The position numbers were made by a program, and so were the translations under genes. Shown in pieces: positions 37,364 to 63,138 of a stretch of DNA of 64,000 nt. Source of the DNA: Bacteroidales bacterium (GTDB lineage Bacteria; Bacteroidota; Bacteroidia; Bacteroidales; UBA932); the NCBI GenBank assembly GCA_017962235.1, contig JAGCVS010000013.1, positions 54,418 to 118,417 of the forward strand, read 5' to 3'. Position 1 is the stretch's first letter, and each line of letters starts with the position of its first letter. Below the pieces are notes generated by a model. It saw only the letters and a program-made list of their open reading frames with translations, was not told the origin of the DNA and made no database searches.

Positions 37364-37753
37364 ATGGCTAAAAAGACAACAACAAACAAAAAGAGAGTTG
37401 TTAAGGTTGATGCTTACGGACAACTTCATGTCTCTTCAACTTTCAACAATGTAATCGTAACTATCACCAACTCCACCGGTCAGGTTATCAGCTGGTCTTC
37501 TGCTGGTAAGATGGGCTTCAGGGGTTCCAAGAAGAACACCCCTTACGCAGCTCAGGTTGCCGCTCAGGACGCTGCCAAGGTCCCTTACGACCTGGGTCTG
37601 AGAAAGGTGAAGGCATATGTCAAAGGTCCCGGTTCAGGCCGTGAGTCGGCTATCCGCACCGTGCATGGCGAGGGTATCGAGGTCACCGAGATTATCGATG
37701 TAACTCCGCTGCCGCACAACGGTTGCCGTCCTAAAGGTCGTCGTAAAGTTTAA
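37364..37753 (+). CDS. rpsK: 30S ribosomal protein S11
   Basis: 129 aa; ...[25 protein letters not shown]...[10 protein letters not shown]. Confidence 0.95.
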
Positions 37754-37774
37754 TCTTTTAAATCGAATCAGAAT

Positions 37775-38380: not shown

Positions 38381-38420
38381 CAGCGTGAAACAACACTAAC
38401 ACAAAAAAACCGAATCATTT

Positions 38421-39419
38421 ATGGCAATTTTAGCATTCCAAAAACCTGATAAGGTCATAATGCTGGACGCTACCGATACCTTCGGCCGCTTTGAGTTCCG
38501 CCCCCTGGAGCCCGGTTATGCGACCACCGTTGGTAACGCGCTTCGCCGCATTTTGCTCTCATCTCTGGAAGGTTTTGCCATCACCAGCATCCGCATCGAG
38601 GGTGTCAAGCATGAGTTTGACACTATCCCCGGCGTGGTTGAGAACGTGGTGGACATCATCCTCAACCTCAAGCAAATTCGTCTGAAGAGAATGATAGAGA
38701 CCGAAGAGGGCGAAACTGCTACCGTAACTGTTAGTGGAAAGACCGAATTCACTGCTTCTGACCTGGCCAAGAGCCTTTCATCTTTCACAGTCCTCAACCC
38801 CGACCTGCACATCTGCACAATGGAGCCCGACGTGAAAATCGTTATGGACTTCACCATTGGCAAGGGTCGCGGTTATGTCCCTTCAGATGAGAACAAAGAC
38901 GAGAAGGCACCGCTCGGTACAATCGCAATCGACTCGATATTCACCCCTATCAAGAATGTCAACTACCGCAGGGAAGACTGCCGCGTAGAGCAGAAGACCG
39001 ACTACGAGTGCCTGATCCTCGAGATCACCACCGACGGTTCCATCTCCCCTAAGGATGCGCTCAAAGAGGCAGCCAAGATACTCATCTATCACTTCATGCT
39101 GTTCTCAGATGACAAGATCACCCTTGAAGAGAACGTTGCTCCCGAGAGCAAGAACCTCGACGAGGAGTCGCTCCGCACCCGTCATCACCTTATGACCAAA
39201 CTTCAGGACCTCGAGATTTCCGTCCGCGCTCTCAACTGCCTCAAGGCTGTGGAGATCGAGACCATCGCAGACCTGGTTTCCCATAAGAAAGAGGAGCTGA
39301 TGAAGCTGCGCAACTTTGGCAAGAAGTCCCTCACAGAGGTGGTTTACCTTGTAGAGAACAAGCTCAAGCTCAGCTTTGGGATGGACGTTTCTAAGTACAA
39401 CATTGATAAAAAAGAATAA
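38421..39419 (+). CDS. rpoA: DNA-directed RNA polymerase subunit alpha
   Basis: 332 aa. N-terminal assembly domain ([25 protein letters not shown]) and C-terminal alpha-CTD ([23 protein letters not shown]). Confidence 0.95.
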
Positions 39420-39425
39420 CAGGAT

Positions 39426-46984: not shown

Positions 46985-49147
46985 ATGCATAGACACTACA
47001 TTATTCTGATACTTGCGCTGCTTGTCTGCGGCGCGTGCGCAAACCGCCCGGTTTCTTCCGGACACGTTGCGGCAGCCGGCCTTAGAACCGATTTGATGGA
47101 GATGACAGATCCGGCAGAGAGCGGAGACATTGCTCTTATAGCTTCCAGTAAACCGCAGTTTTCCTGGGTGGTACCCTCGGTTGGAGACAACACGCGGCAG
47201 GTGGCATACAAGATTGGTGTTTATGAGTGGGAAGATTATGCTGCTCAGAAAATGAAGGGACGGAGCGTCCCGGTATGGGACAGCGGCTGGGTAGAGAGCG
47301 ATACCAGCGTGGCCGTTCCATATCAGGGGCCGGAGCTCAAGCCGGACACGGAGTATTGCTGGACGGTGGAGTTGAAACTTTCCTCTATGAGTAAACGTTT
47401 AAAAACGTCTGAAAGCGTTTATAAACGTTTTAAAACGGATAAAACACTGGCGGAGTACGCCACGCCGTCTTATCCTCTGCTTACCAAAGAAGAGACCTGT
47501 GAGACGCCTGTGAACGGCATTTACGATTTCAAAAAGGCAGCGTTCGGCAAGTTGGTGCTGACTCTCAACGCAGCTAAAGATGACAACGTAACGGTGATTA
47601 TCGGCGAACGGCTCAAGGATGGTGTCATAGAGCACACCCCGCGCGTAAGTTCCGTGGTGTATGATGAGATTGACCTGCGAGTAAAGGAGGGAACGCATAC
47701 ATATCTCGTAGAGCCCAACTGCGATGCCCGCAACACCGGCCCAATGGCTGTGCCCCTGCCTGAATATGCCGGAGTGGTGGCGCCGTTCCGTTTCTGCTCC
47801 ATTTCAGGCGATGTAGAGCCGGTGAGCGTGAAGCGCATCAGCTATCATTATCCTTTCGATGCAAACGCTGCCAGCTTCCGCTGCAGCAACGATACCCTTA
47901 ACGCCATCTGGGACCTGTGCCACTACAGCCTGGAGCCGTGTTCGTTCCTCGGAATCTGGGTGGACGGCAACCGCGAGCGCATTCCGTATGAATACGACGC
48001 GCTCATTGCACAGCTGTGTCATTACGGCGGCGATGCTGAATATTCCATAGACCGCCGCACGCTGGAGTGGCTGCTGGAGAAGCCCACCTGGCCCACCGAG
48101 TGGATTCTCTACACCGTAGAAATCGCCTGGAACGATTATCTGTGGACAGGCGACAGCCGCGCCCTCAAAGCAAATTACGATATCCTCAAAGCCCACAGCC
48201 TGGACGCTCTGCGTAAGGCTAACGGCCTCATTTCCACAAAGCAGGGACAGACGCCGGAGTTCCTGGCCAGCATCAACCGCACCGGCGCTATCACCGATAT
48301 CGTGGACTGGCCGCACAACAAAATTGAGGACGACGGCTTTGTGTATACCGATTTCAATGCGGTAGTGAACGCCCTTTATTACCGCACTCTGCTGCGTCTT
48401 GGCGATATCGCTAGCGTACTTGCAAAGGAGAACGCGACTGGATATGCCCAGCTTACGGGCAACTATGCGGCAGATGCCGCAGGCTTCAAGACCGAGGCCG
48501 TAGAAACTCGCAATGCCTTCCGCAACGCCTTCTATGATGCCGCCTCGGGTCTTGTGCGCGACGGTATCAACACCGACCACGCTTCCCTGCATTCCAATAT
48601 GATGGCGATTCTGTGCGGCCTGCTGGAAGAAGATGAGATTCCTGCGGCTGCAGATTTTGTGGAGTCCCGCGGCCTGATGTGCAGCATCTTTGGCGCCCAC
48701 AACTTCCTGGAATCGCTCTATGCAGCCGGCCGGGGCAGCGCCGCCCTGAGGTTTATGACTAACGACAGCCTTCGCGGCTGGTTCAACGGTCTGCGTCTGG
48801 GCACGACCATCACACTGGAGGCCTGGGACGACAGTTTCAAGCCCAATCAGGACTGGAACCACATCGCCGGCGCAGCTCCGGGCAACGCCATCCCGTTCGG
48901 ACTGATGGGCGTCCGTCCCGTAGAACCCGGCTTCTCGCACGTGGAAATCCGTCCGCAGATCGGCAATCTCGAGTGGGCGGAGATGACCCTCCCCACCATC
49001 CGCGGCAGCATATCGGTATCCATCAGGGACGGAGAGATGAAGGTCACCATCCCCGCCAACATGACCGCCGACATCTGGCTGCCAAATAAGAATAACAAAA
49101 TGACCCGCGTCACAGTGGGGAGCGGGTCATATACGTATAAATACTGA
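46985..49147 (+). CDS. GH78-like alpha-L-rhamnosidase family lipoprotein
   Basis: 720 aa with a lipoprotein signal LLVCGAC. The N-terminal pattern SKPQFSWVV...QVAYKIGVY...VWDSGWVESDTSVAVPYQGPELKPDTEYCWTVEL is typical of Bac_rhamnosid_N. A six-hairpin region follows (RIPYEYDALIAQL..., TLEAWD). Confidence 0.75.
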   Translation: MHRHYIILILALLVCGACANRPVSSGHVAAAGLRTDLMEMTDPAESGDIALIASSKPQFSWVVPSVGDNTRQVAYKIGVYEWEDYAAQKMKGRSVPVWDSGWVESDTSVAVPYQGPELKPDTEYCWTVELKLSSMSKRLKTSESVYKRFKTDKTLAEYATPSYPLLTKEETCETPVNGIYDFKKAAFGKLVLTLNAAKDDNVTVIIGERLKDGVIEHTPRVSSVVYDEIDLRVKEGTHTYLVEPNCDARNTGPMAVPLPEYAGVVAPFRFCSISGDVEPVSVKRISYHYPFDANAASFRCSNDTLNAIWDLCHYSLEPCSFLGIWVDGNRERIPYEYDALIAQLCHYGGDAEYSIDRRTLEWLLEKPTWPTEWILYTVEIAWNDYLWTGDSRALKANYDILKAHSLDALRKANGLISTKQGQTPEFLASINRTGAITDIVDWPHNKIEDDGFVYTDFNAVVNALYYRTLLRLGDIASVLAKENATGYAQLTGNYAADAAGFKTEAVETRNAFRNAFYDAASGLVRDGINTDHASLHSNMMAILCGLLEEDEIPAAADFVESRGLMCSIFGAHNFLESLYAAGRGSAALRFMTNDSLRGWFNGLRLGTTITLEAWDDSFKPNQDWNHIAGAAPGNAIPFGLMGVRPVEPGFSHVEIRPQIGNLEWAEMTLPTIRGSISVSIRDGEMKVTIPANMTADIWLPNKNNKMTRVTVGSGSYTYKY

Positions 49148-49161: not shown

Positions 49162-50613
49162 TTACTCCGAGGTGAACGGGAGCAGGGGGAGGCGGTAGCT
49201 GTTCCAGAGGTGGCCGATGGAGAAATCGTGCCACAGGTAGCGTACGTACTTGGGTTCGGGAACCTCGGGAGCGGTGCAGCCGATGCTGTTGCCGTCGGTG
49301 CCGGTGATGGTGGCGGGATACCACACCTTGTCTTCTCCGGCAACCTCAAAGCCGGGAACACCCTTGAACTCCCAACCCATGTCGGAATGGATTCCGCCGC
49401 CGCAGTTGGAGAGATACACAATCGCATTAGGGCCACTGAAGGTGGCCTTTATCATATCGGGGAAAGCACTGCCAAAGCCCTTGAAACCGTACCAGTTTTC
49501 CAGTGCCAGATATGCCAGACGCTCGCCCACCTCGGCCTTCTTGCGGGGATGGATGATACCCTTTTCAAACTCGTACACCAAGTCGCAGGTGCCAATCATC
49601 GCGCAGTTGGGCACCAGAGTGGCGGCAGCCTTCTGACGGTCGCGAAGACGCGCTGCCAGACCCGAGTCGCCCTCCGCACTGTAGGGATGGGGGGCAATCT
49701 GAACATAGTAGAAGGGGAGGTCGCCGCGGCCAAAGAGCTCGCGCCATTTGGTTACCATAGCGGCCTGCAGTTGCGCATAGTCTTGTGTATAGATGGCTCC
49801 CACGTTGGAGCATCCCTGATACCAGGTGAAACCGTCTATGGTGTAATGACGCAGCGGGTATATCATCGCATTGTACATCAGCGTGCTGGTGTGCCAGGGG
49901 GTGGAGTCCTTGTTCTCACGGATATCCTTGTCCACATCCTCCGCCTTGATGCCGCCCTTTATCAGGCTCTCGCGGTCCATCCAGCACTCAATCATGGTGC
50001 CGCCCCAGCAGGGAACAACAAGACCCACGGGCACGCCCAAATCTTCTGAAAGCTGCCTGCCAAAGTAGAAGGCGGTGGCGCTGAACTCTGCGATATGGCC
50101 GCCGCTGGTGGTCCACCACTCGCCGGAGGCATCCTCCAGAGGTGTCTCAGAAGTTGCCTTTTTTATCATGACCATGCGAAGGCCGGGGTAGTGGCGCGCG
50201 TCGCGCATATCCTCGCCGCCGTTCTCAATCGGCTGGAAGCGCCAGCCGCCCATGGGCATCTCCATGTTGGACTGTCCGCTGCAGAGCCAGACCTCGCCGA
50301 TGAGCAGATTCTCCAGAGAAATATTCTCCTTGCCGCTGGCAACGGTCACGGTCTGCGGCTCGAACGATGCCGCCGGAGTGGCCACAGCCACCTTCCAGAA
50401 GCCATCCTGGCCTGCCACAGCCTTGTAGCGCGCCTTGCTCCAGGATACCGTTACTTTTACAGTCGCGCCGGCATCGGCCCAACCCCAGATATTCGCGTCA
50501 GTTTTCTGCTGAAGCACCATGTTGTTGCCGAAGAAACCCGGCATCCGAAGTCCGTCCGCCCGGGCCACCATAAAGGCCAGCAGGCAGGAAATAATAAGAA
50601 TAATCCGTTTCAT
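49162..50613 (-). CDS. Sialate O-acetylesterase-like (SASA/DUF303) carbohydrate esterase
   Basis: 483 aa with a signal peptide. SGNH-type nucleophile block GEVWLCSGQSNMEMPM. Confidence 0.8.
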   Translation of the reverse strand: MKRIILIISCLLAFMVARADGLRMPGFFGNNMVLQQKTDANIWGWADAGATVKVTVSWSKARYKAVAGQDGFWKVAVATPAASFEPQTVTVASGKENISLENLLIGEVWLCSGQSNMEMPMGGWRFQPIENGGEDMRDARHYPGLRMVMIKKATSETPLEDASGEWWTTSGGHIAEFSATAFYFGRQLSEDLGVPVGLVVPCWGGTMIECWMDRESLIKGGIKAEDVDKDIRENKDSTPWHTSTLMYNAMIYPLRHYTIDGFTWYQGCSNVGAIYTQDYAQLQAAMVTKWRELFGRGDLPFYYVQIAPHPYSAEGDSGLAARLRDRQKAAATLVPNCAMIGTCDLVYEFEKGIIHPRKKAEVGERLAYLALENWYGFKGFGSAFPDMIKATFSGPNAIVYLSNCGGGIHSDMGWEFKGVPGFEVAGEDKVWYPATITGTDGNSIGCTAPEVPEPKYVRYLWHDFSIGHLWNSYRLPLLPFTSE

Positions 50614-52602: not shown

Positions 52603-53937
52603 CTATTTCAGATAAGAAGAGATAGAACCGGCCTTTACCCGGAACCAGTTTTTGGAATCGTCTGAGAGCAGACGGTATTCTGAATGATTGCCCCATGAGG
52701 CGGGGCGGTCGCGGATTTCCATATCCTCGCCCGTGTCGTTGGGCACATAGGGGGCCAGCAGCGTCTGCCACTGCCGGATGCGTTCCGCACTCTGAGAAAC
52801 GCCCGTCCAGGGATTGTCCACAGTAGAGAAATCGCGCAGATACTGCGTGTAGATGTCCCGGAACTCCGCCACCTGCAGGATCTTGCTTATAAGGATGCAC
52901 TCGTCTATGCCCCAGCGGTAGGGGTCCTGCCGCCCGGAGTCGTGCTGCACCCCGCAGTTGTGGGAGGTTCCCAGCGTGTTGTCGTAGTCATAGGGGAGCA
53001 TGTACACCTTGTAGTTGAACGGGTCGCGGCTGTTGAAATAGAGATAGAAGTTGTTCTTGTTGTTCCAGTAATCGTCCCAGTGCCCCAGCGCCACGTTGGC
53101 GGCGTACATCTTGAGCAGCAGGTCCACGTCGCACACGCGGGAAATCCAGTTGCGGAACGAGTCTCCCTTGAGATGCTGGAGATTGCTTATAAAGTCCTTC
53201 AGCTGGGCGGTGGCAGGCACCAGGTCGGCGGCATCGTCGCTCTTGAGGTCGTATACATACTCCTTCGAAGAATCGTCGTCCAGATGGAACAGCCGGCTGT
53301 CGGTGTCGCGCAGGTTGGCGCCCCAGTTGCACTTCCAAAGAAAGCCGTCGTCGGCGCCAAACAAGGGGCGGTTGCGCACGTACTGCCGGTCTATCGACTC
53401 CGTCATCATATACACGCCCATGTACACGGCGGGACTGTCGCCCACCCGCAGCGAAAGCCGGCACCAGGATGACTGCGGCGCCGTCCACACCCCGTATCGG
53501 GTTAGCAAATCGTAGCAGAAATGCTCGCGGATGTAGGTCGGGTCCTCCTTGGCATACTTTAGGTTGATGCGCCGTATGCCGGCCAGATTGCCGCCCTCGT
53601 TGAACTTGTGCAGGTGCAGCCCGTAGTGGACACGACGCCAGCGCACATCCCCCTGGCTGTGCTTGTCACCGGAGTGCCCCTCGGGGCGCCGGCGGGAGGT
53701 GTTGCCCCGCAGCCGCAGTCCGGCATCGGCACATTTTAAGGTGCCGCCATCGCGCTCCAGAGTTACGGTGCGGCACTTTACATATTCGTGGGTGTGATTG
53801 TCCTTGTCGTAGGCCTCCAGCAGATTGTTCCATTCGCTCTCAGAAATCGATATGGTGAGTGCGGGAAGGGCGGTGTCGTCAAAAAAGCGCTTCACCGCCG
53901 GCGATGGCGTAAGCGCATCGTCGCTAATAACAATCAA
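52603..53937 (-). CDS. CotH kinase-family protein; start uncertain, since a lipoprotein signal peptide is encoded in frame upstream without a canonical start codon
   Basis: 444 aa from TTG 53935-53937. CotH-type blocks ISISESEWNNLL, LRLRGNTSRR and INLKYAKEDPTYIREHFCYDLL. In-frame upstream codons (to 54003) read (I)TRVKLLYATILILAATSCGKD. Confidence 0.75.
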   Translation of the reverse strand: MIVISDDALTPSPAVKRFFDDTALPALTISISESEWNNLLEAYDKDNHTHEYVKCRTVTLERDGGTLKCADAGLRLRGNTSRRRPEGHSGDKHSQGDVRWRRVHYGLHLHKFNEGGNLAGIRRINLKYAKEDPTYIREHFCYDLLTRYGVWTAPQSSWCRLSLRVGDSPAVYMGVYMMTESIDRQYVRNRPLFGADDGFLWKCNWGANLRDTDSRLFHLDDDSSKEYVYDLKSDDAADLVPATAQLKDFISNLQHLKGDSFRNWISRVCDVDLLLKMYAANVALGHWDDYWNNKNNFYLYFNSRDPFNYKVYMLPYDYDNTLGTSHNCGVQHDSGRQDPYRWGIDECILISKILQVAEFRDIYTQYLRDFSTVDNPWTGVSQSAERIRQWQTLLAPYVPNDTGEDMEIRDRPASWGNHSEYRLLSDDSKNWFRVKAGSISSYLK

Positions 53938-53999: not shown

Positions 54000-55178
54000 T
54001 TATTTGCGCATTTTAGTCATGTAGAACAACAGGTACAGCACGCCAAGGGTCATTACGGCGATTGCGCCTGCCTGACTGTTCATTGCATCCGCAGCCACAC
54101 CCATAACGGGCGGGAAGATAGCGCCGCCGATAATACCCATGATAAGCAGGCCGGAAACCTCGTTCTGCTTGTCGGGCACTGCCTGCAGCGACTGTGCGAA
54201 GATGATGGAGAAGAGGTTTGAGTTGCCGATACCAGCAAGTACGATTGCGCCGTAGAGCACGGTCTTGGTCTCTCCAAAGAACATTCCTGCCATGGCTGCA
54301 ATCAGCATTAGCACGCTAACCAGGAATACCTTGCGGTGGCTTACCAGCGAGAGCAGCAGCGCGCCCAAAAGGCAGCCGGCGGTACGGCAGATAAAGTAGA
54401 GGGAGGTGGCGAAGCCGGCCTCTTCCAGAGGCATGCCTGCCCTCTCCATCAGGAGCCTGGGTGCGGTGGTGTTGATGCCGACGTCCACACCCACATGGCA
54501 GATGATGCCGATAAAGGAGAGCAGCACGAACCCGACGCCCAGCAACTTGAAGCAGTCGGCGAAAGAAGAGGTCTCGCCGGCAACCTGCTCACGCGGAATG
54601 GCGGTGATGGCAAGCAGCACTGCTGCAAGGATGCCGATGGCACCGTAGATGGGGAACAGTGCCCTCCAGCCCAGTCCGAACAGAGAAGGGGAGGCAGCTG
54701 CGCACCAGCCCATGATAAGGGGTGCCATGAAAGATGCGATGGCCTTCACAAACTGACCGAAGGTCATGGCGCTGGCCAGCTTCTTGCCGCTGATAAGGTT
54801 GGTGATAAGCGGGTTGAGGGAGGTCTGCATAATGGCGTTGCCGATACCCAGCAGAGAGAATGCTATCAGCATCACTGCCAAGCTGTTGCTGAATATGGGG
54901 AGCAGCAGGGACACCACGGTGATCACCATAGAGAGCATCACGGTGTTCTTGCGGCCAATGCGGTTCATCAGCAGACTTGTGGGGATGGAAAAAATCAGGA
55001 ACCATACAAACACCATGGAAGGGAGGATGTTGGCCATTGTGTTGCTCAGTTCGTGCTCTTTCATCACGTAACTTGAGGCGGTGCCCACCAGGTCCACGAA
55101 TCCCATCGCAAAGAAGCATAGCATCACCGGAATAATCTGTACCGGGAGGCCTTTTTTAGTTTGGACGTCGTTGCTCAT
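54000..55178 (-). CDS. MFS transporter, FHS (fucose/glucose-galactose:H+ symporter)-like
   Basis: Start placed at ATG 55176-55178 (MSNDVQTKKGLPVQIIPVMLCFFAMGFVDLVG). 12 TM segments and an MFS loop motif LMNRIGRKN. A minus-strand -7 box TATCTTTG (plus-strand caaagata, 55215-55222) lies upstream. Confidence 0.8.
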   Translation of the reverse strand: MSNDVQTKKGLPVQIIPVMLCFFAMGFVDLVGTASSYVMKEHELSNTMANILPSMVFVWFLIFSIPTSLLMNRIGRKNTVMLSMVITVVSLLLPIFSNSLAVMLIAFSLLGIGNAIMQTSLNPLITNLISGKKLASAMTFGQFVKAIASFMAPLIMGWCAAASPSLFGLGWRALFPIYGAIGILAAVLLAITAIPREQVAGETSSFADCFKLLGVGFVLLSFIGIICHVGVDVGINTTAPRLLMERAGMPLEEAGFATSLYFICRTAGCLLGALLLSLVSHRKVFLVSVLMLIAAMAGMFFGETKTVLYGAIVLAGIGNSNLFSIIFAQSLQAVPDKQNEVSGLLIMGIIGGAIFPPVMGVAADAMNSQAGAIAVMTLGVLYLLFYMTKMRK

Positions 55179-55243
55179 GTCTTTATTGTTAATGATTATA
55201 TGCGTATTGGTTCTCAAAGATAGAAAAAAAAGACAGGAAATGA

Positions 55244-55251
55244 TATCTTTG
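55244..55251 (+). promoter_or_regulatory. Candidate -7 promoter box (TATCTTTG) for the glycyl radical enzyme gene
   Basis: Matches TAnnTTTG and ends 4 nt before the first ATG (55256). This implies translation more likely starts at Met11 (55286). Confidence 0.4.
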
Positions 55252-55255: not shown

Positions 55256-57520
55256 ATGAAACAGAATACGCACACCGGCGGGAAGATGTCCCGTGCCGAT
55301 TTTTTGAAATACTCTACATACGGGCTCGGAGGGTTGTTCCTAGGTCTCAAGGTGTCGGAGCTGGATGCAGCTGAGAGCAGTCCGGCGCCCCGTACGGCGG
55401 CAAAAGAGCTGTACGAGAGCTGGAAGTCTCCATGGCAGCCGGAGGTACCGCAGCGCCTTAGCAAGATTACGCACGAGCTGGCGTGGAAGGGACTTTCCGG
55501 AGAGAACGGCCGCACCATGAAAATGGTGGACTGGAACCCGCAGATAGACCCCGCCCTGCCGCCGCAGATGAAATATGCCGCCGCAGCCAAGAGCATTGCA
55601 GAGAACGCCCCGCTGCGCATCCTCCCCGGCGAGCTGATAGTTGGCTCCGCAACCCTGCTGGAGGCCATGCACGAGAGGATTCCCATTCTGTTATCCCAAA
55701 GCGTGACCCATACAACACTCGATTTTGAGCGCATCCTCCCACTGGGCTATAACGGCCTCAGGAAGCAGATACGCGAGCGTCTGGCAGCCGGTACCCTGGA
55801 TGAGAAAGGTCGCGAACTGAACGAAGCGGCTTTGCTCACCCTGGATGCAGCCGATATCTGGCAGCAGCGCAACATCGCCCTGCTGGAGCAGATGATGGGC
55901 GGGCAGCCGGCAGAAGGCAAGGCCTTTTACCAGACCATCATAGATACCCTCAAACGCGTCCCGGACGAGGCGCCGCGCTCTTTCCGCGAGGCGGTGCAGT
56001 CACTCTGGAGCATGTATGCCTTCCTCCGCCTGATGGGTGACTGGTCCGGCATAGGCCGCATAGACCGCATGCTGGGTCCCTACCTCAAGGAAGACCTCCG
56101 CAAAGGGGTGCTAACCCTGGACGAGGCCCGCGAAATCCTGGCTCACTTCTGGATCAAGGGCACCGAGTGGATTGGCGGTTTTTACGTGAACAGCGGCGAT
56201 GCCCAGTTCTACCAGAACATAATCCTGGGCGGCATAGACAAAGACGGCAAGGAGGTTACCAATGAAGTGACCTATCTGGTGCTGGATATAGTAGAAGAGC
56301 TGCATATCAGCGACTTCCCTATAGCTGTCCGCCTCGGCGACAAGACCCCGGAGAAACTTATCCGCAGGATTGCGGAGGTGCAGCGCTTTGGCGGCGGCAT
56401 AGTCTCCGTATACAGCGAGAACATCGTGATAGAGGGTCTGGTGAAATTCGGCTATCCTCTGGAAGAGGCGCGCGAATTCACCAACGACGGCTGCTGGGAG
56501 GCAATCATCCCCGGCAAGACCGCTTTCACATACGCCGCCAACGATATGCTGGAGGTGTTTGGCAAGACCCTCCATCTGAACGATGAAACTCCGGTGGATT
56601 TCCCCGACTTTGAGAGCCTCTACGCCGCATTCAAGAAGAACCTTGAAGCCGATGTGGATGTATGGCAGGGGATAATAGACCCCTGGTGGAAGGATGTGGA
56701 CGCACCCTGCACGCTGCCCTCCATCTTCACCTACGGCTGTCTGGAGAAGGGACGCTGCTTCCGCGGCGGCGGTCCCAAATACAACATGATAGGCATCCAC
56801 TACGGCGGCGTTTCCGATACCGCCAACAGCCTGCTGGTGCTCAAGAAGCTCGTATATGAAGAGGGCTACCTGTCGCTGGGCGACTTTGTGGGCATCCTCC
56901 GCAAGAACTGGGAGGGGAACGAAGGGCTCCGCCAGCTCATCCGCACCCGCTTCACCTTCTACGGCAACGACGATGCTGCCGCAGACGCCATGATGAACCG
57001 CGTTTACAACGATTACACAGAAATCGTGGGCCGCTGCAAAGACCGTGAAGGGGTCAAGAGGCCGTGCGGCATATCCACCTTTGGCCGTGAGATTGACTGG
57101 CGCATGCAGCGCCGCGCTACCCCGGAGGGGAGCCGCATAGGCGATATCCTGGCCACCAACTGCTCTCCCACACCCGGCAGCGACCGCAAGGGCCCCACAT
57201 CGGCCCTGAACTCATACTGCAAGCTGGATTTCACCCGCTGCCCCAGCGGCGCGACCCTGGAGCTCAAGGTGCTGCCCTCTTCCGTGAAAGGGGAGAACGG
57301 CGTAAAGGCGCTCATGGGCCTGCTCAAGACCTTCCGCGAGAAGAAGGGATTCTACATGCACGTGGACGTGGTGGACACCGCCACCCTGATAGACGCGCAG
57401 CGCAATCCGGAGAAGTACCCCAACCTGCCGGTACGTGTGGCGGGCTGGAGCGCACGCTTCACCACACTGTGCAAGGAGTGGCAGGATATGATTATCCAGC
57501 GCACCCAGCAAATCTGCTAA
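55256..57520 (+). CDS. Glycyl radical enzyme, PFL2/dehydratase-lyase clade, unknown substrate (alternative start 55286)
   Basis: 754 aa. Glycyl radical motif RVAGWS (Gly730, nt 57443-57445). Thiyl loop NDGCWE (Cys413, nt 56492-56494, Cys-x-Glu). N-terminus MSRADFLKYSTYGLGGLFLGL resembles a Tat leader. Confidence 0.9.
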   Translation: MKQNTHTGGKMSRADFLKYSTYGLGGLFLGLKVSELDAAESSPAPRTAAKELYESWKSPWQPEVPQRLSKITHELAWKGLSGENGRTMKMVDWNPQIDPALPPQMKYAAAAKSIAENAPLRILPGELIVGSATLLEAMHERIPILLSQSVTHTTLDFERILPLGYNGLRKQIRERLAAGTLDEKGRELNEAALLTLDAADIWQQRNIALLEQMMGGQPAEGKAFYQTIIDTLKRVPDEAPRSFREAVQSLWSMYAFLRLMGDWSGIGRIDRMLGPYLKEDLRKGVLTLDEAREILAHFWIKGTEWIGGFYVNSGDAQFYQNIILGGIDKDGKEVTNEVTYLVLDIVEELHISDFPIAVRLGDKTPEKLIRRIAEVQRFGGGIVSVYSENIVIEGLVKFGYPLEEAREFTNDGCWEAIIPGKTAFTYAANDMLEVFGKTLHLNDETPVDFPDFESLYAAFKKNLEADVDVWQGIIDPWWKDVDAPCTLPSIFTYGCLEKGRCFRGGGPKYNMIGIHYGGVSDTANSLLVLKKLVYEEGYLSLGDFVGILRKNWEGNEGLRQLIRTRFTFYGNDDAAADAMMNRVYNDYTEIVGRCKDREGVKRPCGISTFGREIDWRMQRRATPEGSRIGDILATNCSPTPGSDRKGPTSALNSYCKLDFTRCPSGATLELKVLPSSVKGENGVKALMGLLKTFREKKGFYMHVDVVDTATLIDAQRNPEKYPNLPVRVAGWSARFTTLCKEWQDMIIQRTQQIC

Positions 57521-57527: not shown

Positions 57528-58400
57528 CTAAGCTATACCGATTCTGCGGGCAAAGGCCTCCGTTTCTGAGGCGCTTGGCTCGCGGAATCTTTTTTCTGCC
57601 AGCCCCAGCTTCTCCCGCTTGGCGTTGCCCAGAAGATGATACGGGATTACCTCCGCGCTGTACTGCGGATACTTCTGAAGTAGGGCGGCGGTGGATTCTG
57701 CGATGCCATCTGTGCAGTGGATTTCCGGTACGAAAAGCACGCGGAATCGGATCTGTGCGCCGGTGGCGGCCACGGCGTTGAGGTTATCCAGCATGGTGTC
57801 CAGGTCGCCGCCCGTGTACTGCCTATACAGAGTCGGCTCCATCAGCTTGATGTCCCATAGCCAGAGGTTCACGTAGGGGGCCGCGGCCAGAAAATCCTCT
57901 TTGCGGCCGTTGCCGGAGGTCTCCACGGCGGTGTGCAGTCCGCGCTCAGTGGCCTGTCGCAGCAGTTCCCGGCAGAAGGGCGGCTGCGCCATAGGCTCGC
58001 CGCCGGAGAGCGTCATCCCGCCGCCGGAATTGCGGTAATACGCCTCGTCCTGCATCACCTCTTCCAGAATCTCATCTGTGCCGACGCGGCGGCCCGCCAC
58101 CTCCAGGCAGAGGGTGGGGCAGGCGTCGGCGCACAGCCGGCAACCGGGCGGGCAGGTGGCCTTCCGTGCACCGGCATCGGCCAGAATCGTCTTGGGAGAA
58201 CCCTTGCCGCAGGTGGCATCGCACGCCCCGCAGCCTATGCAGCGCTGTGTGTTCAGCAGAATCTCAGGGGCGAAACACTGCGATTCTGGGTTGTGACACC
58301 ACTCGCAAAGCAGGGTGCACCCCTTCAGGAACACCGTGGTGCGTATCCCCGGCCCGTCCCCGGTACAAAAATGCTGAATGTCAAAAATCCCGCCTTCCAT
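57528..58400 (-). CDS. Glycyl-radical enzyme activating protein (radical SAM)
   Basis: 290 aa. CTLLCEWC (CxxxCxxC) radical-SAM cluster site preceded by GDGPGIRTTVFLKGC. Two ferredoxin-like cysteine clusters, CIGCGACDATC and CRLCADACP. Confidence 0.9.
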   Translation of the reverse strand: MEGGIFDIQHFCTGDGPGIRTTVFLKGCTLLCEWCHNPESQCFAPEILLNTQRCIGCGACDATCGKGSPKTILADAGARKATCPPGCRLCADACPTLCLEVAGRRVGTDEILEEVMQDEAYYRNSGGGMTLSGGEPMAQPPFCRELLRQATERGLHTAVETSGNGRKEDFLAAAPYVNLWLWDIKLMEPTLYRQYTGGDLDTMLDNLNAVAATGAQIRFRVLFVPEIHCTDGIAESTAALLQKYPQYSAEVIPYHLLGNAKREKLGLAEKRFREPSASETEAFARRIGIA

Positions 58401-58407: not shown

Positions 58408-61400
58408 TTACCGGTGTCTGGGGGAGAAACCGCCGGCGGTTACGCCAAAGAGGCCGCCGCTGTTGTAGGTGGCCAGCATCTTGCGTTTCTGGATGCGGCC
58501 TGCCTGATGAATCTCGTCTGTGAGCTTAAATACGCCGTTGAAGTCGGTAGAGCGGCTCTTGATATTGCGCTGGTGGAGGTTGCCCGCACCATCGCGGACC
58601 CATCCGCCGTGCTTCTGGCTCTCTGTTGTCTCAATCAGCTTGCCCTGCCGTGCCTTCATGGCGATATCCAGCGGCTTTGCAATCTTGAGCGCCTTGCCCA
58701 GTTCGCCGTATCCGGCATAATCCAGAGTGGTTTCTATGACACCTTTTATGGACAGATTGGAATTGATGTGGCCCAGCACATTATCCAGGAAGCCCTTGAT
58801 TGCTCCTGCATCCGGTCCGGTGGTCTTAACAGGTTTGCCGGTAATCTGGCTTTCATAATCGGCCCATACTTTCTCCAAATACTTGGTTTCGGTGTCCAGG
58901 TCCATACCCAGTTGGCCGTCTACCAGGCCGATGCGGAGAGTGCCGGAGGGCAGGTTGATGTCAAGCGTAAGGTCGCTGAGTCCGCCGATGGCGTTCTGGG
59001 GGAACTCTTTCTCGTCGCGGGCGTCAAATTTTGCCTGATAATACTCATTTGCAGCCGCATTTGCATCGTGCCATGCTTCATTCTTTATCTGCGCTTCTGC
59101 CTTGAGAATATTCTGCCGGGTCTGCCAGAGGCTTTCTCCTTCACGGGCCTTGGATGAAAAAGTGGCACAGTATTCCCCGTATATGTCGGAGAGGGTGCGG
59201 AACCAGAAGAACTTTGCAATAATGGGGTCATGGCAGTATAGAGCAAGCCTGGATACATCTGCCCACCACTCTACCAGAATGGGCCGCATGGTATTATTGT
59301 AGTAATCCATATAGTGGGTCTCCTCTTCCGTGGCCTGCGGAACGGAGATATTATCCAGCACCTCGGTGGGTTGTGTCACGCTGGTAAGGATGCGATAGGG
59401 GCGGAGAATCCTCCTTTCAGCCCTTGCATATGCAGAATCGGATGCGTTGGGGTGGTCATTGCACCATTTGTCTAATTCATTGGCGCACTTCTTGGCTAAT
59501 GCCGTGCCCTCTTTCTCGTGGCGCTTTTGCATGGCCTCGCCAATATCATTGAACTTTTTATGGGTAGCCACATCTGCAGATATCCACGATTTCCAGCCGG
59601 AGCAGAGCACGCCGTGGAAGGTATTCGTCTCCTCGTCGTAATCGCCAAAACCGTTGGATATGGCGTCCAGACGGTACTTGTAATAGCGCTCCAGCGCCCA
59701 AAGGCACCAGAATGCGCGGTCGTCCGGGATATAGAAGCCGTCCACACCATACTTCATTCCCAGAACTGAGGTAAACTTGGCATATCCGTCTTTAGCTAAA
59801 GATTCCAGGCCGGCGGGGAGGCTCATATTTGCCGCTGTCGCCCGTGCGCGCGCGTTCCCGCTCACGCTGGGGAGAGCCCGGGCCGTTTCGTAGATTTTAT
59901 CTGCATTGCCCGGCAGGCCGCTGAGTCCCATGGCCATAATCAGCCCCACGCTGAAAGAACCGTCCTGGGCCGCCTCTGCCTTATTCCATGCTGCTTCGCT
60001 TTTATTTGCATACTGCTCTGCCAGATTCTTGTTCAGCCGCCAGCTACTTTCCAGATTACCGGCGCCGGTAGCCAGGAAGTCGGCCTTCTCGCTCTCGAAT
60101 TTCTCCGTACGGCTCCAGGTGATGCCCTTGCGGAGGTTGTCCAGATTCTCTTTGGTGAACACAGATTCCACCAGATTCAAGAAGTCACCGTCGCGCTCTG
60201 AGGCGGCCAGTTCCGCCGCGTCAAGCTCTGCAAGCAGTGAGCTGAGCAGCAGCGCTGAATTCTCGTCAAAATAGCCATAAGCGAGCGATTGGAACAGATA
60301 GTCGGCCGCCTTGAAGGGGCTGTCGTTCTTATCCTCCAGCATAGCCCGGTAAAGCCATGCGCGGCCGTCCTGCAGGCCGTTCGGGGTCATCTCCAGAATC
60401 TTGGGAACAATCTTGCGGGCCTTTTCCACGTTGCCCATGTCCAGATGGCACTCGATCTGCCCGTACAGGGCGTCGGCATAGTCGGGCTGATATTCTGAGG
60501 ATTTCTCAAAATACTCCAGCGCATATTTGGGGTCGCCCAGCTCCAGCAGCAACGTGCCGGTGGTGTTCAGCATGGTGGGGTGGGGATACACGCTGCAGCG
60601 GGCAATGGCGCTCTCTGCCAGTTCGCCCGTCACGGCGCCGGTGAAAATTGCCCAGCCCACGCTGTCGGCGTAGTTGACCACATCGCGCTGTACCTGTTCT
60701 GCAGTCTTGCCCTTGCACTGTGCGAGAAACTGCTCCAGCGCCAGTTTTACGCCCTCCTGGGTGATATTCTTGTCTGTGCGTAACTTCTTTTGCTGCTTTG
60801 CCGGCTTCATGGCCGATGCCAGCACGGGGGCGCTGACGCTCTGCCGGCCGGTGATGGCGATATTCTGCATAGCACTGCCGCAGGCAAGTTCTTCCTGCGT
60901 GCCGGTGTCGGTCCAGGGCTTGGAACATTTGGGCGGAGCGGGGTAGAGCGACTTCTTTACCTGTCCAGCTTTGCTCTTTGCGGCCCCCATGCCCATCTGG
61001 CTCATAGCCATGTTTACCAGATCGTCTACACTCATCCCTTCCGGGAGTTCCTGCCCCTTCATGCTTTCGCGGATCTGCTTCTCCATTGCAGAGCGGTCTA
61101 TTCCGGCCATAGCCATGGGGTCCGTGTTGCCAACTCCCATGCCGGGCACTGACCCTGCCGAACCCTCCTTCCAGTCGTTGCCAACGCAGAAGAACATGTT
61201 ATTTGGGATAAAAGTGCTGAAAGATATCAGACTCATAGGGCCGAGGTCCTCGCCGTCGGAAGCACCCAGGTCAATGATGGAAACCTTGTCTGAGTTGTAG
61301 TAGAAGGTTATGGTATTGCCATCGGCGGTGTACTCGTCAAAGTACCAGCCCTCTTCTCCGTTGATATTGCAAGTGCCCTGGCGCACAAATTTCAGGCGGT

Positions 61401-61737
61401 CAAAAGATGGTGCGCCGCTGCCGCCGGGCCGTGCCGACCAGGTCTTGGAGGCCTCGTCCAGCATATAGGTGGCCTGCGGAGTGGTGAGCGTGACGCCGTC
61501 CATCATCTGCGTATGGGTGCGGCTCATGGACACTCCGCCGCGGCTTGCAACCTCCACGGAAATCTGCATCTTGTCCCGCTGAAGGTCGGTGTCGGAGATG
61601 GACTGAACGGAGCTGAGCTTCATGTAAAACTTGCCACCCTCCATGGCCTTGACCAGCGTGGTGGAGACGTATGCTCCCTGAGCAAAAGCGGCGGCGCCCG
61701 AAAGGAGCGCAGCCGCTATTATCATAATTCGTTTCAT
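58408..61737 (-). CDS. Large secreted hypothetical protein (1109 aa) with a central TPR-like region
   Basis: Signal peptide MKRIMIIAAALLSGAAAFAQG. TPR-like helices around LELGDPKYALEYFEKSSEYQPDYADALYGQIECHLDMGNVEKARKI. No catalytic motif or known family recognised. Confidence 0.7.
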   Translation of the reverse strand: MKRIMIIAAALLSGAAAFAQGAYVSTTLVKAMEGGKFYMKLSSVQSISDTDLQRDKMQISVEVASRGGVSMSRTHTQMMDGVTLTTPQATYMLDEASKTWSARPGGSGAPSFDRLKFVRQGTCNINGEEGWYFDEYTADGNTITFYYNSDKVSIIDLGASDGEDLGPMSLISFSTFIPNNMFFCVGNDWKEGSAGSVPGMGVGNTDPMAMAGIDRSAMEKQIRESMKGQELPEGMSVDDLVNMAMSQMGMGAAKSKAGQVKKSLYPAPPKCSKPWTDTGTQEELACGSAMQNIAITGRQSVSAPVLASAMKPAKQQKKLRTDKNITQEGVKLALEQFLAQCKGKTAEQVQRDVVNYADSVGWAIFTGAVTGELAESAIARCSVYPHPTMLNTTGTLLLELGDPKYALEYFEKSSEYQPDYADALYGQIECHLDMGNVEKARKIVPKILEMTPNGLQDGRAWLYRAMLEDKNDSPFKAADYLFQSLAYGYFDENSALLLSSLLAELDAAELAASERDGDFLNLVESVFTKENLDNLRKGITWSRTEKFESEKADFLATGAGNLESSWRLNKNLAEQYANKSEAAWNKAEAAQDGSFSVGLIMAMGLSGLPGNADKIYETARALPSVSGNARARATAANMSLPAGLESLAKDGYAKFTSVLGMKYGVDGFYIPDDRAFWCLWALERYYKYRLDAISNGFGDYDEETNTFHGVLCSGWKSWISADVATHKKFNDIGEAMQKRHEKEGTALAKKCANELDKWCNDHPNASDSAYARAERRILRPYRILTSVTQPTEVLDNISVPQATEEETHYMDYYNNTMRPILVEWWADVSRLALYCHDPIIAKFFWFRTLSDIYGEYCATFSSKAREGESLWQTRQNILKAEAQIKNEAWHDANAAANEYYQAKFDARDEKEFPQNAIGGLSDLTLDINLPSGTLRIGLVDGQLGMDLDTETKYLEKVWADYESQITGKPVKTTGPDAGAIKGFLDNVLGHINSNLSIKGVIETTLDYAGYGELGKALKIAKPLDIAMKARQGKLIETTESQKHGGWVRDGAGNLHQRNIKSRSTDFNGVFKLTDEIHQAGRIQKRKMLATYNSGGLFGVTAGGFSPRHR

Positions 61738-61743: not shown

Positions 61744-63138
61744 TTATTTCTTTACGAACTCTACGCGGCGGTTCTTTGCGCGACCCTCATCGGTGTTGTT
61801 GTCTGCGATAGGGACGTGGGAACCTTTACCAACGGCAGTGAGGCGCTCTTTGGCGATGCCCTGCTCTACCAGGGCGGCAACGATGGCCTCTGCGCGCTTC
61901 TGGCTCAGCGGATCGTTCACCTTATCTGAGCCTGTGGAATCGCAGTGACCCTGCACCTCGAACTTGAGGGACGAATCGTCTTTCATAAGCTTGGCGATGC
62001 GGTTAATCTCTACCATAGATTCGGGCTTGAGATCTGCCTTGCCGGTCTCAAAGGTTATGGCATAGGTCACAATCTTGCCGTCTGAAGCAAGGCGGTCGTA
62101 CAGAGGCACTGCGCCCTTGGCAATGCGGACGTTGGAGATGCAGCCAAACTTGTAGGCGCCCTGGTGAACGAACCAGAAATGGGAAGGTACCTTGGCGTTG
62201 GGGATATTGATTACCCTCATCCCGTTCACATAACCTTTAAAAGCGCGCTTGTTGAAGGAGAATGCGATGTGATTCCATGCATTGTCTTTCAAAGGAGTGT
62301 TGGGCGAATCCAGATACATGTCCTTTTCTCCGAAGATATCATCTCCGCCGTTGGGCTTCTGGGCAGTCCAGTGCATGGAGGCGCCTCCATCCGTTGCCCG
62401 GAACCATAAAGCCCCATAAATTACCCTTCCATTCCAGTTGGGAAGGTCCGGATTTCCGAAAGCAAACTCCAGTGAGCTGTCGTTGAAACCATCCCCTTCT
62501 CCAGTTTCCAGGTAAACGTCAAATTCGAGCGTAAACACATCCGGCAGGAAGTGTTGCTGGTCCTTCATCAGAGGCTGGATTTCTGCGTATCCATCGTCCG
62601 TGAAGGCAATCACCTTGCGGCCGTTGATGGAACCCACCTCTGCATAACCGCCCATCAGATCCCACTGGGAGGGGAACTCGCCCAGCTTTTCGCCAGAGAA
62701 GTCATCGTCAAAGATAATCTCATCTCCAGGGACAAAGTCGCTCTTGGCATATGCGGATTCCGCTTGCTTCTTGGGAGCAGCAGCCTTCTTCTCCGGCTTC
62801 TCTGCCTTTGCGGGAGCAGCTTCTTCTTCACCTTCAGCTGCGGGGCGCTTTGTGCCGCACTCCTCGCAGAACTTGCCGGTGTTCTCTGCACCGCATTCAG
62901 GGCATGTCCAGGTAGCATCGTTCTTCTCTTCTTCCTGGTCTTTCTGCTTCTTGTTCTTCTTTATCTTCTTGTTGAAGACACCGTCTATGGCATCGTTCAC
63001 GCCCTGTTCAACCTTGTTGCCCACGTTGCTTTCCATAGCATCCTTGGCCCTGTCGCCAAGCCTCTGCAGGAGGCCCTGGGCGCTTGCACTGCCGCCCAGC
63101 ATAGCCAGCACGGCGATTGACATAAGAAATCTTTTCAT
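61744..63138 (-). CDS. OmpA-family protein with signal peptide, zinc ribbon, charged linker and LamG-like domain
   Basis: Start placed at ATG 63136-63138 (MKRFLMSIAVLAMLGGSASAQ). Zinc ribbon WTCPECGAENTGKFCEECG, an E/K/A/P-rich linker, and a jelly-roll-like middle (NAWNHIAFSFNKRAFKGYVNG). OmpA_C end: LSQKRAEAIVAALVEQGI...NRRVEFVKK. Confidence 0.8.
   Translation of the reverse strand: MKRFLMSIAVLAMLGGSASAQGLLQRLGDRAKDAMESNVGNKVEQGVNDAIDGVFNKKIKKNKKQKDQEEEKNDATWTCPECGAENTGKFCEECGTKRPAAEGEEEAAPAKAEKPEKKAAAPKKQAESAYAKSDFVPGDEIIFDDDFSGEKLGEFPSQWDLMGGYAEVGSINGRKVIAFTDDGYAEIQPLMKDQQHFLPDVFTLEFDVYLETGEGDGFNDSSLEFAFGNPDLPNWNGRVIYGALWFRATDGGASMHWTAQKPNGGDDIFGEKDMYLDSPNTPLKDNAWNHIAFSFNKRAFKGYVNGMRVINIPNAKVPSHFWFVHQGAYKFGCISNVRIAKGAVPLYDRLASDGKIVTYAITFETGKADLKPESMVEINRIAKLMKDDSSLKFEVQGHCDSTGSDKVNDPLSQKRAEAIVAALVEQGIAKERLTAVGKGSHVPIADNNTDEGRAKNRRVEFVKK

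Follow-up and report, generated by a model that had tools for sequence, protein, structure and literature searches.

Can a glycyl radical enzyme (GRE) be exported by the twin-arginine (Tat) pathway and work outside the cytoplasm? The question is raised by a forward-strand open reading frame at positions 55256-57520 of the window, by which we mean the whole 64,000-nucleotide stretch of Bacteroidales DNA analysed here. Its 754-aa product begins with a sequence that resembles a Tat signal with alanine in place of the second arginine. The radical of GREs, which oxygen destroys, has to be installed by an activase that depends on SAM and flavodoxin, and to our knowledge all characterised members of the class work in the cytoplasm. 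Full-text searches of a literature library found neither an exported GRE nor a link between GREs and Tat; an exported GRE, as suggested by the comparisons below, would be new for the enzyme class and without an earlier report.

The protein is a glycyl radical enzyme. Pfam identified the PFL-like barrel domain (PF02901, E 6.4e-92) and the Gly_radical domain (PF01228, E 9.4e-24), and the fold is that of the GRE barrel. Both motifs described in the first-pass annotation were found exactly as noted: the glycyl radical motif RVAGWS, residues 727-732 (57434-57451, with Gly730 at 57443-57445), and the thiyl loop NDGCWE, residues 410-415 (56483-56500), which contains Cys413, Trp414 and Glu415. Across 75 family members no variation was seen at Gly730, Trp731, Ser732, Cys413, Glu415 and His152 or in the NDGCWE loop, which also distinguishes a wider, uncharacterised clade of GREs. 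In a pairwise HMMER alignment to glycerol dehydratase (GDH; 1r8w), Cys413, Glu415 and His152, the last within an SVTHTT segment at 55700-55717, align with the catalytic residues Cys433, Glu435 and His164, which bears out the earlier assignment to the Cys-x-Glu (eliminase) type. The putative label 'eliminase' rests on these Cys-x-Glu-His residues, and the score against TIGR01774, the PFL2/glycerol dehydratase subfamily model, lies below its cutoff (334.5 vs 678.2 bits).

The best sequence matches in the PDB were glycerol dehydratase (C. butyricum, 1r8w) and 1,2-propanediol dehydratase (R. inulinivorans, 5i2a/5i2g), with E-values of 7e-79 and 1e-76 and an identity of only 23-25%. The AlphaFold (AF2) model of the window protein (pLDDT 88) shares the ten-stranded barrel of these two enzymes (Foldseek TM 0.78-0.81), and TM values of about 0.8 were obtained for the glycerol and propanediol dehydratases, HypD and CutC together. 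The glycyl radical motif, the Cys-x-Glu loop, the equivalent of GDH His164 and a dedicated activase of the two-ferredoxin type are common to the window GRE and the two dehydratases, whereas the thiyl loop differs (NDGCWE instead of GCVEP). The GDH segment GKTEGWHDS after this loop, which contains Asp447, is deleted in the window GRE, and Ser282 aligns with Gly265; thus neither Ser282 nor Asp447, which we take to be the diol-binding residues of GDH, is conserved. The N-terminal region 86-160 of GDH (about 75 residues) is shrunk to about nine, and at 754 aa the enzyme is indeed shorter than the solved eliminases (787-843 aa), as had been remarked. CutC, HypD, IslA and the PflD/YbiW anhydro-sugar-phosphate dehydratases have the same fold (Foldseek E 1e-37 to 1e-42) and the same logic of Cys-x-Glu radical 1,2-elimination, but they are cytoplasmic and have no signal peptides, unlike the leader-bearing window GRE. 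All NCBIfam equivalogs scored far below cutoff (HypD, 306.9 vs 1100; CutC, 243.3 vs 1050; likewise HpsG and HpfG). The family is previously undescribed.

The leader of the window GRE reads MSRADFLK-YSTYGLGGLFLGL-KVSELDA and is retained whether translation starts at Met1 or at the alternative Met11 (55286). Its layout is that of a Tat signal. The n-region motif SRADFLK (residues 12-18, 55289-55309) has Ala at the position of the second Arg, where homologues have RR in register; consecutive arginines, as in S/T-R-R-x-F-L-K, are thus absent. It is followed by a Gly-rich, moderately hydrophobic h-region, YSTYGLGGLFLGL (residues 19-31, 55310-55348; 1.32 on the Kyte-Doolittle scale for the best 12-residue window), and by the c-region KVSELDA (residues 32-38, 55349-55369), which ends in a signal-peptidase-like site, L-D-A/A, with predicted cleavage after Ala38. 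A variable linker (residues 39-55, 55370-55420) leads to the conserved entry of the core, W-x-S-P-W-Q-P-E-x-P-x-R-L-S. The moderately hydrophobic h-region, the basic Lys32 and the AxA-type site (residues 36-39) are found in the orthologues alike: the Lys after the h-region is conserved, and [AL]-x-A/A occurs at the same place (ADA/A, AEA/A, LSA/K, LNA/A; the slash marks the predicted cut). The cleavage site and the signal layout were judged by eye and by simple scoring. The earlier question whether residues 11-45 stand apart from the barrel was answered with the AF2 model, where residues 1-50 lie outside it with pLDDT below 50, an isolated low-confidence helix is seen at residues 13-24, and the core begins at about residue 60. 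No solved GRE matches the leader and linker of about 55 residues, and the PDB alignments start only at residue 100.

The motif is conserved among homologues, as the first-pass annotation had proposed to check. It was present in register in 106 of the 120 best homologues, and the remaining 14 are mostly fragments truncated at the N-terminus. The position occupied by RA in the window carries RR in 32 of the 106 leader-bearing close homologues. At the species level, the leader was found in 42 of about 75 genomes (29 RR, 6 RK and 7 RA/RS). The complete arrangement of S/T/D/N-R-R-x-F-L-K, h-region and AxA-like site occurs in homologues from at least five phyla, and RR members belong to Bacteroidota, Planctomycetota, Hydrogenedentota, Armatimonadota/Chthonomonadales and others. 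The second Arg has been replaced at least four times independently (RA, RK, RS, RG), and only in Bacteroidales. Sister clades (43-47% identity, about 700 aa) start directly at the conserved RLS motif without a leader; in these and in the basal clades the RLS start falls at the position of window residue 67 and is closely preceded by stop codons, and the leader is therefore an added module. By comparison with its homologues, the window leader derives from a true Tat signal, of whose arginine pair it keeps one, and is not a chance look-alike, and the family is, on the same sequence grounds, one that ancestrally bore a Tat leader with a predicted cleavable signal peptide.

The leaders were compared with curated Tat models. 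Five of six tested RR leaders passed TIGR01409 (cutoff 16.7 bits) with 21.5 (P0066), 19.9 (P0065), 23.0 (P0115), 22.1 (P0117) and 19.0 bits (L033), and P0115 and P0117 also passed PF10518 (25.3 and 25.5 bits; cutoff 22.7). An RS leader (12.5 bits) and an RK leader (15.3 bits) stayed below the TIGR01409 cutoff, and the RA leader of the window gave no match to either model even at E-values up to 10. It is because of this failure that 'degenerate', the term used earlier for the leader, is the right word. E. coli SufI in which D, E, H, N or Q stands in place of the second Arg is transported by Tat only if the hydrophobicity of its h-region is raised (PMC5539426). Such hydrophobic compensation, an idea that follows Huang and Palmer 2017, was not supported here, as leaders lacking the second Arg (RX) were not above RR leaders: mean hydropathy (Kyte-Doolittle, best 12-residue window) was 1.63 for RR and 1.49 for a raw RX set that held a few spurious motif matches (Mann-Whitney p = 0.96), genuine RX leaders being near 1.7 by eye. 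As a control we used the Gfo/Idh/MocA family of Bacteroidota Tat substrates, in which 118 of 120 members have RR; these were matches at ≥80% identity, mainly from Marinilabiliales, with Alistipes and the rumen lineages not sampled. Repeated loss of the second Arg in the GRE is therefore unusual, and it could reflect a change of function.

Like the canonical Tat signals of Gfo/Idh/MocA, the window leader has an n-h-c layout, the S-R-x-x-F-L-K register, an h-region rich in Gly, Ala and Ser, a basic c-region residue and an x-A/A site; unlike them, it has R-A for R-R, and its passenger is a radical enzyme and not a cofactor-binding redox protein. TatA and TatC are present in seven Bacteroides genomes (PMC6281302). 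A search of the window and the fetched loci with an approximate E. coli TatC gave no match, and no further RR-type leader was seen in the window or in the loci of the RX clades; in both cases little sequence per genome was available.

Selection on the leader was examined in the RA/RK clade by codon comparison with five orthologues. At residues 11-32, 19% of the residues were changed and 49% of the codons showed synonymous-only differences, while 18.8% of the residues were changed in the core and 63% in residues 33-55 (c-region and linker). Judged by these substitutions, the leader is under purifying selection equal to that on the core, and because of this the translation start cannot lie downstream of residue 45, a possibility that had been raised against the leader.

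The GRE gene is followed by a convergent gene on the reverse strand (57528-58400), only 7 bp from the GRE stop, which encodes a glycyl-radical activating enzyme of the radical SAM family (290 aa; TIGR02494, 277.7 bits vs a cutoff of 174.35). The activase has no signal peptide, and its N-terminus, MEGGIFDIQHFCTGDG..., runs directly into the CxxxCxxC motif. In about 24 of the 38 leader-bearing loci an activase was found no more than about 2 kb away from the GRE, directly beside it in most, and it was the only recurrent neighbour in otherwise varying gene contexts. Upstream of the GRE, the Bacteroidetes-type -7 box described earlier was located as a putative element, TATCTTTG, at 55244-55251, ending 4 nt before the ATG at 55256 and 34 nt before that at 55286, and a putative mirror box lies on the reverse strand at 55215-55222, 36 nt before the ATG (55178) of the divergent gene; the 8-mer TATCTTTG is not enriched in the window (26 found, 19.8 expected). 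The divergent gene (54000-55178, reverse strand, 392 aa as called) had been described as a sugar transporter of the MFS type. It is a divergent MFS gene (Pfam MFS_1), and its matches to NCBIfam sugar-transporter models are all far below cutoff. We also considered the transporter as a partner of the GRE and rejected it, as the adjacency is not conserved in any related locus, including those of the window's own clade; a homologue 92% identical lies about 3 kb from the GRE in locus L011, and no match was found in the other loci scanned.

Family members often lie among genes for periplasmic glycan degradation (SusC/D, the glycoside hydrolases GH95, GH29, GH78 and GH53, sulfatases). In locus L093, whose leader is TRAQFLR, the GRE stands in a SusC/D polysaccharide utilisation locus (PUL) between SusD-SusC-activase and GH32/LamG-GH95-GH27-GH2; in L006 (leader SRAEFIR), GH141, GH123, two sulfatases and GH29 are upstream of the GRE. 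The order GH53-GRE was seen in L092, and GH78 is nearby both in L091 and in the window. In one RR subclade a surface loop of the enzyme carries an inserted Laminin_G_3 lectin domain. Loci L003 and L010 share the order GRE-activase-sulfatase. We rejected the sulfatase as a fixed partner, since the two sulfatases are only 29% identical and sulfatases occur in a minority of loci; they are a theme and not a partnership. Near the leaderless relatives, AraC regulators (8 of 26 loci) and scattered glycoside hydrolases were found, a substrate hint no finer than 'carbohydrate'. The lack of microcompartment shell genes noted earlier for the window extends to its annotated flanks and to the relatives: among the 25 commonest Pfam families of 134 neighbour proteins from 38 loci there were neither shell proteins (PF00936/PF03319) nor aldehyde-processing genes, a difference from the glycerol and propanediol dehydratases.

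The computational checks that the first-pass annotation had put forward all spoke for its reading. We give slightly better than even chances to the view that the window protein is a Cys-x-Glu GRE that is activated in the cytoplasm, exported in its folded state by Tat and active as a radical eliminase in the periplasm. The RA leader most likely still targets the enzyme, because it is maintained by selection, and a folded-protein export signal on a GRE means that the enzyme probably works outside the cytoplasm, probably in the periplasm on sugar polymers. The GRE would fold in the cytoplasm, the adjacent leaderless activase would install the radical on Gly730, and the Tat translocase would export the folded, radical-bearing protein, the leader being cleaved, probably after Ala38. 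In the anoxic periplasm the enzyme may then carry out a redox-neutral 1,2-elimination, in which Cys413 would provide the thiyl radical and the pair Glu415/His152 would serve as base and acid; like the chemistry of the GRE dehydratases and CutC, this would need no cosubstrate. The substrate would be a glycan-derived compound that is set free by periplasmic glycosidases and sulfatases encoded nearby. Export is perhaps less efficient in the rumen Bacteroidales lineage of the window, where the second Arg became Ala.

About one chance in four, as we see it, falls to a different fate of the same ancestor: the enzyme was once exported by Tat, and in those Bacteroidales that lost the second Arg, including the window lineage, the leader no longer drives export and has been retained for some other purpose. 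This might be docking of the cytoplasmic activase or of a chaperone of the Tat-proofreading type, or attachment of the enzyme to the cytoplasmic side of the membrane close to a transporter. The independent losses within Bacteroidales, the failure of the window leader in both Tat models, the SufI results together with the missing rise in hydrophobicity, and the retention of RR in Gfo/Idh/MocA all favour this reading. It also has a precedent in the cytoplasmic nitrate reductase NarG, whose vestigial Tat leader has lost the arginine pair, is still conserved and binds the chaperone NarJ. However, the window GRE, unlike NarG, keeps the h-region, the c-region and the peptidase-like site, and the RX clades as a whole retain F-L-K, the Lys and the x-A/A site; a peptidase-like c-region would be superfluous in a pure docking peptide, an h-region of 13 residues does not suffice as a membrane anchor, and RX members stay in clusters of periplasmic enzymes (L093 and L006). 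No NarJ/TorD-like gene recurred as a neighbour in the census of 38 related loci.

It is improbable that the whole family is cytoplasmic and that even the RR leader only resembles a Tat signal, is never translocated and serves just to bind a chaperone or the activase or in a regulatory role. The cytoplasmic location of every characterised GRE and the silence of the searched literature on GREs and Tat would fit, and the radical is not regenerable outside the cell; that a periplasmic GRE could not be re-activated after radical loss is a point against export. Yet the h-regions and AxA sites of the RR leaders that pass the curated models are those of typical cleaved signals. Since there are paralogous clades without a leader, catalysis and activation do not require it, and both the PUL and sulfatase surroundings and the lectin insertion indicate a place outside the cytoplasm. 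Least credible of all is a decayed relic or a signal of another kind, although the second Arg is missing and the window h-region (YSTYGLGG) is less hydrophobic than those of the orthologues. The leader is not a relic, because purifying selection on it equals that on the core. A Sec signal was rejected because a chain exported unfolded could not be activated by the cytoplasmic activase, and the Lys of the c-region also disfavours Sec. The window leader has no lipobox, because it contains no Cys, and in relatives that do have a Cys only about five residues separate it from the F-L-K-R motif, too few for a lipobox. A microcompartment-targeting peptide was dismissed on the neighbour census, in which no shell protein is among the 25 commonest families of 38 loci.

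Beyond Tat export of the window enzyme, a wider proposal seems to us possible but somewhat short of an even bet: that this is the first extracytoplasmic GRE family, placed in PULs, whose Tat-exported, radical-bearing members would act on glycan-derived substrates by C-O (or C-S) elimination in the anaerobes' periplasm, with the RR to RX change tuning export kinetics. The suggested purpose of such tuning is to leave time for activation before export. Suggested targets are the sulfate, methyl-ether and hydroxyl groups that hydrolases cannot handle and for which aerobes use oxygenases.

If GREs with genuine Tat signals are confirmed, they would be the first evidence of protein-radical chemistry in the periplasm and a new class of Tat passenger, post-translationally 'charged' rather than loaded with a cofactor. 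They would add a new kind of enzyme to the PULs of gut, rumen and sediment anaerobes, including Alistipes hominis, and could account for the removal of hydrolysis-resistant decorations from glycans by anaerobes. The RR, RK, RA, RS and RG leaders, which occur naturally on one passenger, form a test set for how strictly Tat systems other than that of E. coli require the arginine pair. Alistipes hominis, in which the family is present, is a cultured species of the human gut.

The GRE gene occupies nt 55256–57520 (+) in the ORF listing and encodes a protein of 754 aa, as the first-pass annotation had described. Pfam searches placed a PFL-like domain at residues 149–609 (E 6e-92) and a Gly_radical domain at residues 633–736 (E 9e-24). 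RVAGWS with Gly730 (residues 727–732), NDGCWE with Cys413 and Glu415 (residues 410–415) and SRADFLK (residues 12–18, right behind Met11 at nt 55286) all lie where that annotation had put them. A convergent gene 7 bp downstream (57528–58400) encodes the glycyl-radical activating enzyme (activase; TIGR02494, 277.7 bits against a cutoff of 174.35), whose sequence carries no N-terminal extension and reaches the CxxxCxxC cluster motif directly. The activase may be co-transcribed with envelope proteins and not with the GRE, since it is co-directional with the genes of a 1109-aa TPR_19 protein and an OmpA-family protein immediately upstream (58408–61737 and 61744–63138, both (-)).

The assignment to the Cys-x-Glu eliminase type was borne out by alignment: Cys413, Glu415 and His152 correspond to Cys433, Glu435 and His164 of B12-independent glycerol dehydratase (GDH, 1r8w) and are invariant across 75 family members. 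The best sequence matches among solved structures were 1,2-propanediol dehydratase (5i2a, E 7e-79) and GDH (E 1e-76); these two also came first among the fold neighbours, followed by HypD and CutC, with a TM score of ~0.8 at an identity of only 23–25%. No named GRE subfamily fits (TIGR01774, 334.5 bits; cutoff 678.2), and the protein fell far under the threshold of all equivalog models. It differs from GDH in that Gly265 sits opposite Ser282, the GKTEGWHDS segment behind the thiyl loop is deleted and ~75 residues of the N-terminal region have shrunk to ~9; the NDGCWE loop is the mark of a broad uncharacterised GRE clade. The shared catalytic set, these differences and the clade membership together suggest that the enzyme probably catalyses a radical 1,2-elimination on a substrate unlike those of the known enzymes.

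The N-terminal motif is conserved. The same module was found in register in 106 of the 120 closest database homologues (55–100% identity), with R (32), S (31, for the most part from a single Alistipes species cluster), A (27), K (10), G (5) or E (1) at the position of the second arginine, so that a true RR pair stands at the RA position of our protein in 32 of these sequences. A family census was made by scanning one genome per species. Within Bacteroidales, members were found in rumen MAGs, Alistipes hominis strain New-7, Tannerella, Cryptobacteroides, Odoribacter, Fermentimonas and Prolixibacteraceae, and beyond that order in Planctomycetota, Phycisphaerae, Hydrogenedentota, Armatimonadota, Chthonomonadales, Lentisphaerota, Anaerolineae and others. 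Every leader that the scan found outside Bacteroidales has the canonical RR pair (for example LSRRGFVK, LDRREFIK, MNRRDFLR, MSRREFVK and MDRRTFLK), with a Gly/Ala/Ser-rich h-region and then an AxA-like c-region behind it.

The leaders were scored with curated Tat-signal HMMs in place of TatP or SignalP. With TIGR01409, five of six RR leaders were above the cutoff of 16.7 bits (19.0–23.0 bits), and an RK leader (15.3 bits) and an RS leader (12.5 bits) were under it; with PF10518, two RR leaders passed (25.3 and 25.5 bits against 22.7). The RA leader of the window gave no match at all to these models. Its sequence relationships identify it as a derivative of a Tat signal.

It is also a module added to the GRE core. 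Relatives at 43–47% identity (~700 aa) start directly at R-L-S-x-x-T-x-x-L-A, which corresponds to residue 67 of our protein, and the same start recurs across many Phycisphaerae, Lentisphaerota, Armatimonadota and Anaerolineae genomes. Stop codons a few codons upstream show that these proteins truly have no leader. In a neighbour-joining tree of the core, which is approximate, the leaderless lineages are basal and all leader-bearing sequences fall into one large group with a few secondary losses. Detachment of the leader from the barrel was seen in an AlphaFold model (mean pLDDT 88), where residues 1–50 have pLDDT <50 with only an isolated helix at 13–24, and the confident core begins at about residue 60. 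One apparent loss, the database protein P0114, proved to be an annotation error: the entry begins at an internal Met, gene calling having dropped a canonical RR leader, and the extended ORF (9986–12226 of its locus L008) reads MNRRDFMK, MNRRDFMKQATGG... Some other "leaderless" database entries may be similar artefacts. In three leaderless members from Lentisphaerota/Victivallales (loci L065, L072 and L076; 873–882 aa), a ~200-aa N-terminal domain without a Pfam match replaces the usual N-terminus.

According to the same approximate tree, the second arginine was replaced at least four times, each time inside Bacteroidales, giving [ST]RAEF[LI]R in a Fermentimonas-like clade, SR[AK]DFLK in the window's rumen clade, SRKEFLK in a Tannerella clade and SR[SGA][ED]FLK in an Alistipes clade. 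RR clades such as Rikenellaceae (KRREFLK) and Cryptobacteroides (SRRSFIK) branch among these RX clades. We compared the GRE codon by codon with five orthologues. In the n- and h-regions of the leader (residues 11–32), 19% of residues were changed and 49% of codons had synonymous changes only; the corresponding values were 63% and 24% for the c-region and linker (residues 33–55), 27% and 32% for the entry to the core (residues 56–100), and 18.8% and 32% for the core (residues 101–754). Our protein and its orthologues also keep the Lys of the c-region and an [AL]-x-A|A site, which in our protein is L-D-A|A (residues 36–39). By these measures the leader is not undergoing decay, and the RX leaders are therefore functional, Tat export being a candidate function.

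A second reading of these lineages, the window included, is that the leader was converted to a cytoplasmic docking or tethering peptide. In E. coli SufI, replacement of the second arginine stops Tat transport unless the h-region gains hydrophobicity (PMC5539426). We found no such compensation in the RX leaders (mean 1.49, against 1.63 for RR; p = 0.96; Kyte–Doolittle, best 12-residue window), and since they lack it, the SufI data disfavour their continued export. The leader of the window is the least hydrophobic of its own clade by the same measure (1.32 against ~1.5–1.6) because its h-region starts with YSTY (residues 19–22, nt 55310–55321) instead of the VS[ST]L of all close orthologues. A control family also speaks against continued export of the RX proteins: in the Bacteroidota Gfo/Idh/MocA proteins, which are Tat substrates, RR was kept in 118 of 120 sequences, a sample spanning only 80–92% identity. 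Conversion to a docking or tethering peptide is the main rival to export, though we regard it as rather improbable.

Activation of a GRE requires the folded protein, SAM, the activase in reduced form and an electron donor from the cytoplasm, so that a GRE could reach the periplasm in active form only by a pathway that carries folded proteins. GREs of the eliminase type work without a cosubstrate and could therefore turn over in a strict anaerobe's periplasm. On these two points rests our proposal that the enzyme would fold and be activated in the cytoplasm, be exported by Tat, lose its leader by cleavage and carry out elimination in the periplasm on a glycan-derived substrate, a sequence of events towards which we lean with some reserve. 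The analysis establishes what the enzyme is, where its leader comes from, that this leader is conserved and detached from the fold, and in which gene contexts it occurs, whereas export, cleavage and the class of substrate are inferred. Full-text literature searches pairing GREs with export or with PUL/sulfatase topics returned no paper on an exported GRE. The GRE superfamily and the Tat signal type are each well known; their combination, and its placement in PULs, appears to be undescribed.

Many Bacteroidota loci of this GRE are clusters of periplasmic glycan-degrading genes. Among RR loci, L003 contains SusC/D, GH97, an esterase, a pyruvyl transferase, GRE, activase and a sulfatase; L010 contains GH29, two GH2, a LamG/T9SS protein, GRE, activase, a sulfatase (only 29% identical to that of L003) and GH97; and L092 is GH53-GRE-activase. 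L006 (SRAEFIR) has GH141, GH123, two sulfatases, GH29, GRE and activase, L093 (TRAQFLR) has SusD-SusC-activase, GRE and GH32/LamG-GH95-GH27-GH2, and L091, from the window's clade, has GH78, Exo_endo_phos, GRE and activase. In the window, a GH78 rhamnosidase (46985–49147 (+)) and a SASA (sialate O-acetylesterase-like) protein (49162–50613 (-)) lie ~6 kb upstream of the GRE, and a CotH-family protein (52603–53937 (-)) also precedes the MFS–GRE pair. The divergent MFS neighbour is indeed present, but it is not conserved beside the GRE in related loci. Apart from the activase no neighbour recurs; the activase was found within ~2 kb of the GRE, mostly adjoining, in ~24 of 38 leader-bearing loci, and in ~5 of 26 leaderless ones. 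Families for microcompartment shells, aldehyde dehydrogenases or chaperones were not recurrent among the related-locus neighbours. A context different from that of the PUL-type loci is conserved in L029 and L045, which come from Odoribacter and a MAG of Bacteroidota: an IclR regulator, the GRE and the activase stand together with a beta-propeller protein that has Mala_s_1-like and PQQ_2 matches and a weak match to arylsulfotransferase.

A ~217-residue Laminin_G_3 (ConA-like lectin) domain is inserted in the GRE, at a surface loop matching residues 182–185 of our protein, in one RR-leader subclade whose members (950–1065 aa) belong to Hydrogenedentota and Planctomycetales (database proteins P0121 and P0113, L064:9710–12904, and also L061, L074, L082, L083 and L089).

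The -7 box reported before the gene, TATCTTTG, exists at 55244–55251 (+), with its end 4 nt upstream of ATG 55256 and 34 nt upstream of ATG 55286, and a mirror copy at 55215–55222 (-) stands on the side of the divergent MFS gene, 36 nt before its ATG. The similar 34- and 36-nt spacings favour Met11 as the start, as had been suggested, but Met1 is possible too, because some orthologues have no Met right before S-R (the homologue P0016 starts MLGEDKNISRK) and the family norm is six to ten residues N-terminal of S-R. The leader is retained with either start. Divergent TAnnTTTG -7 box pairs were also seen at 12351 (-)/12380 (+) and 42190 (-)/42211 (+), again in short intergenic regions that separate divergent genes. 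For the genes starting at 42223 and 50613 the end of the box is likewise only 4 nt from the called ATG; such cases are either wrong start calls or very short leaders. Short co-directional ORFs at ~30150–39420 (+) resemble a ribosomal-protein gene cluster and bear no relation to the GRE finding, and a serpin and UvrA are encoded farther along in the window.
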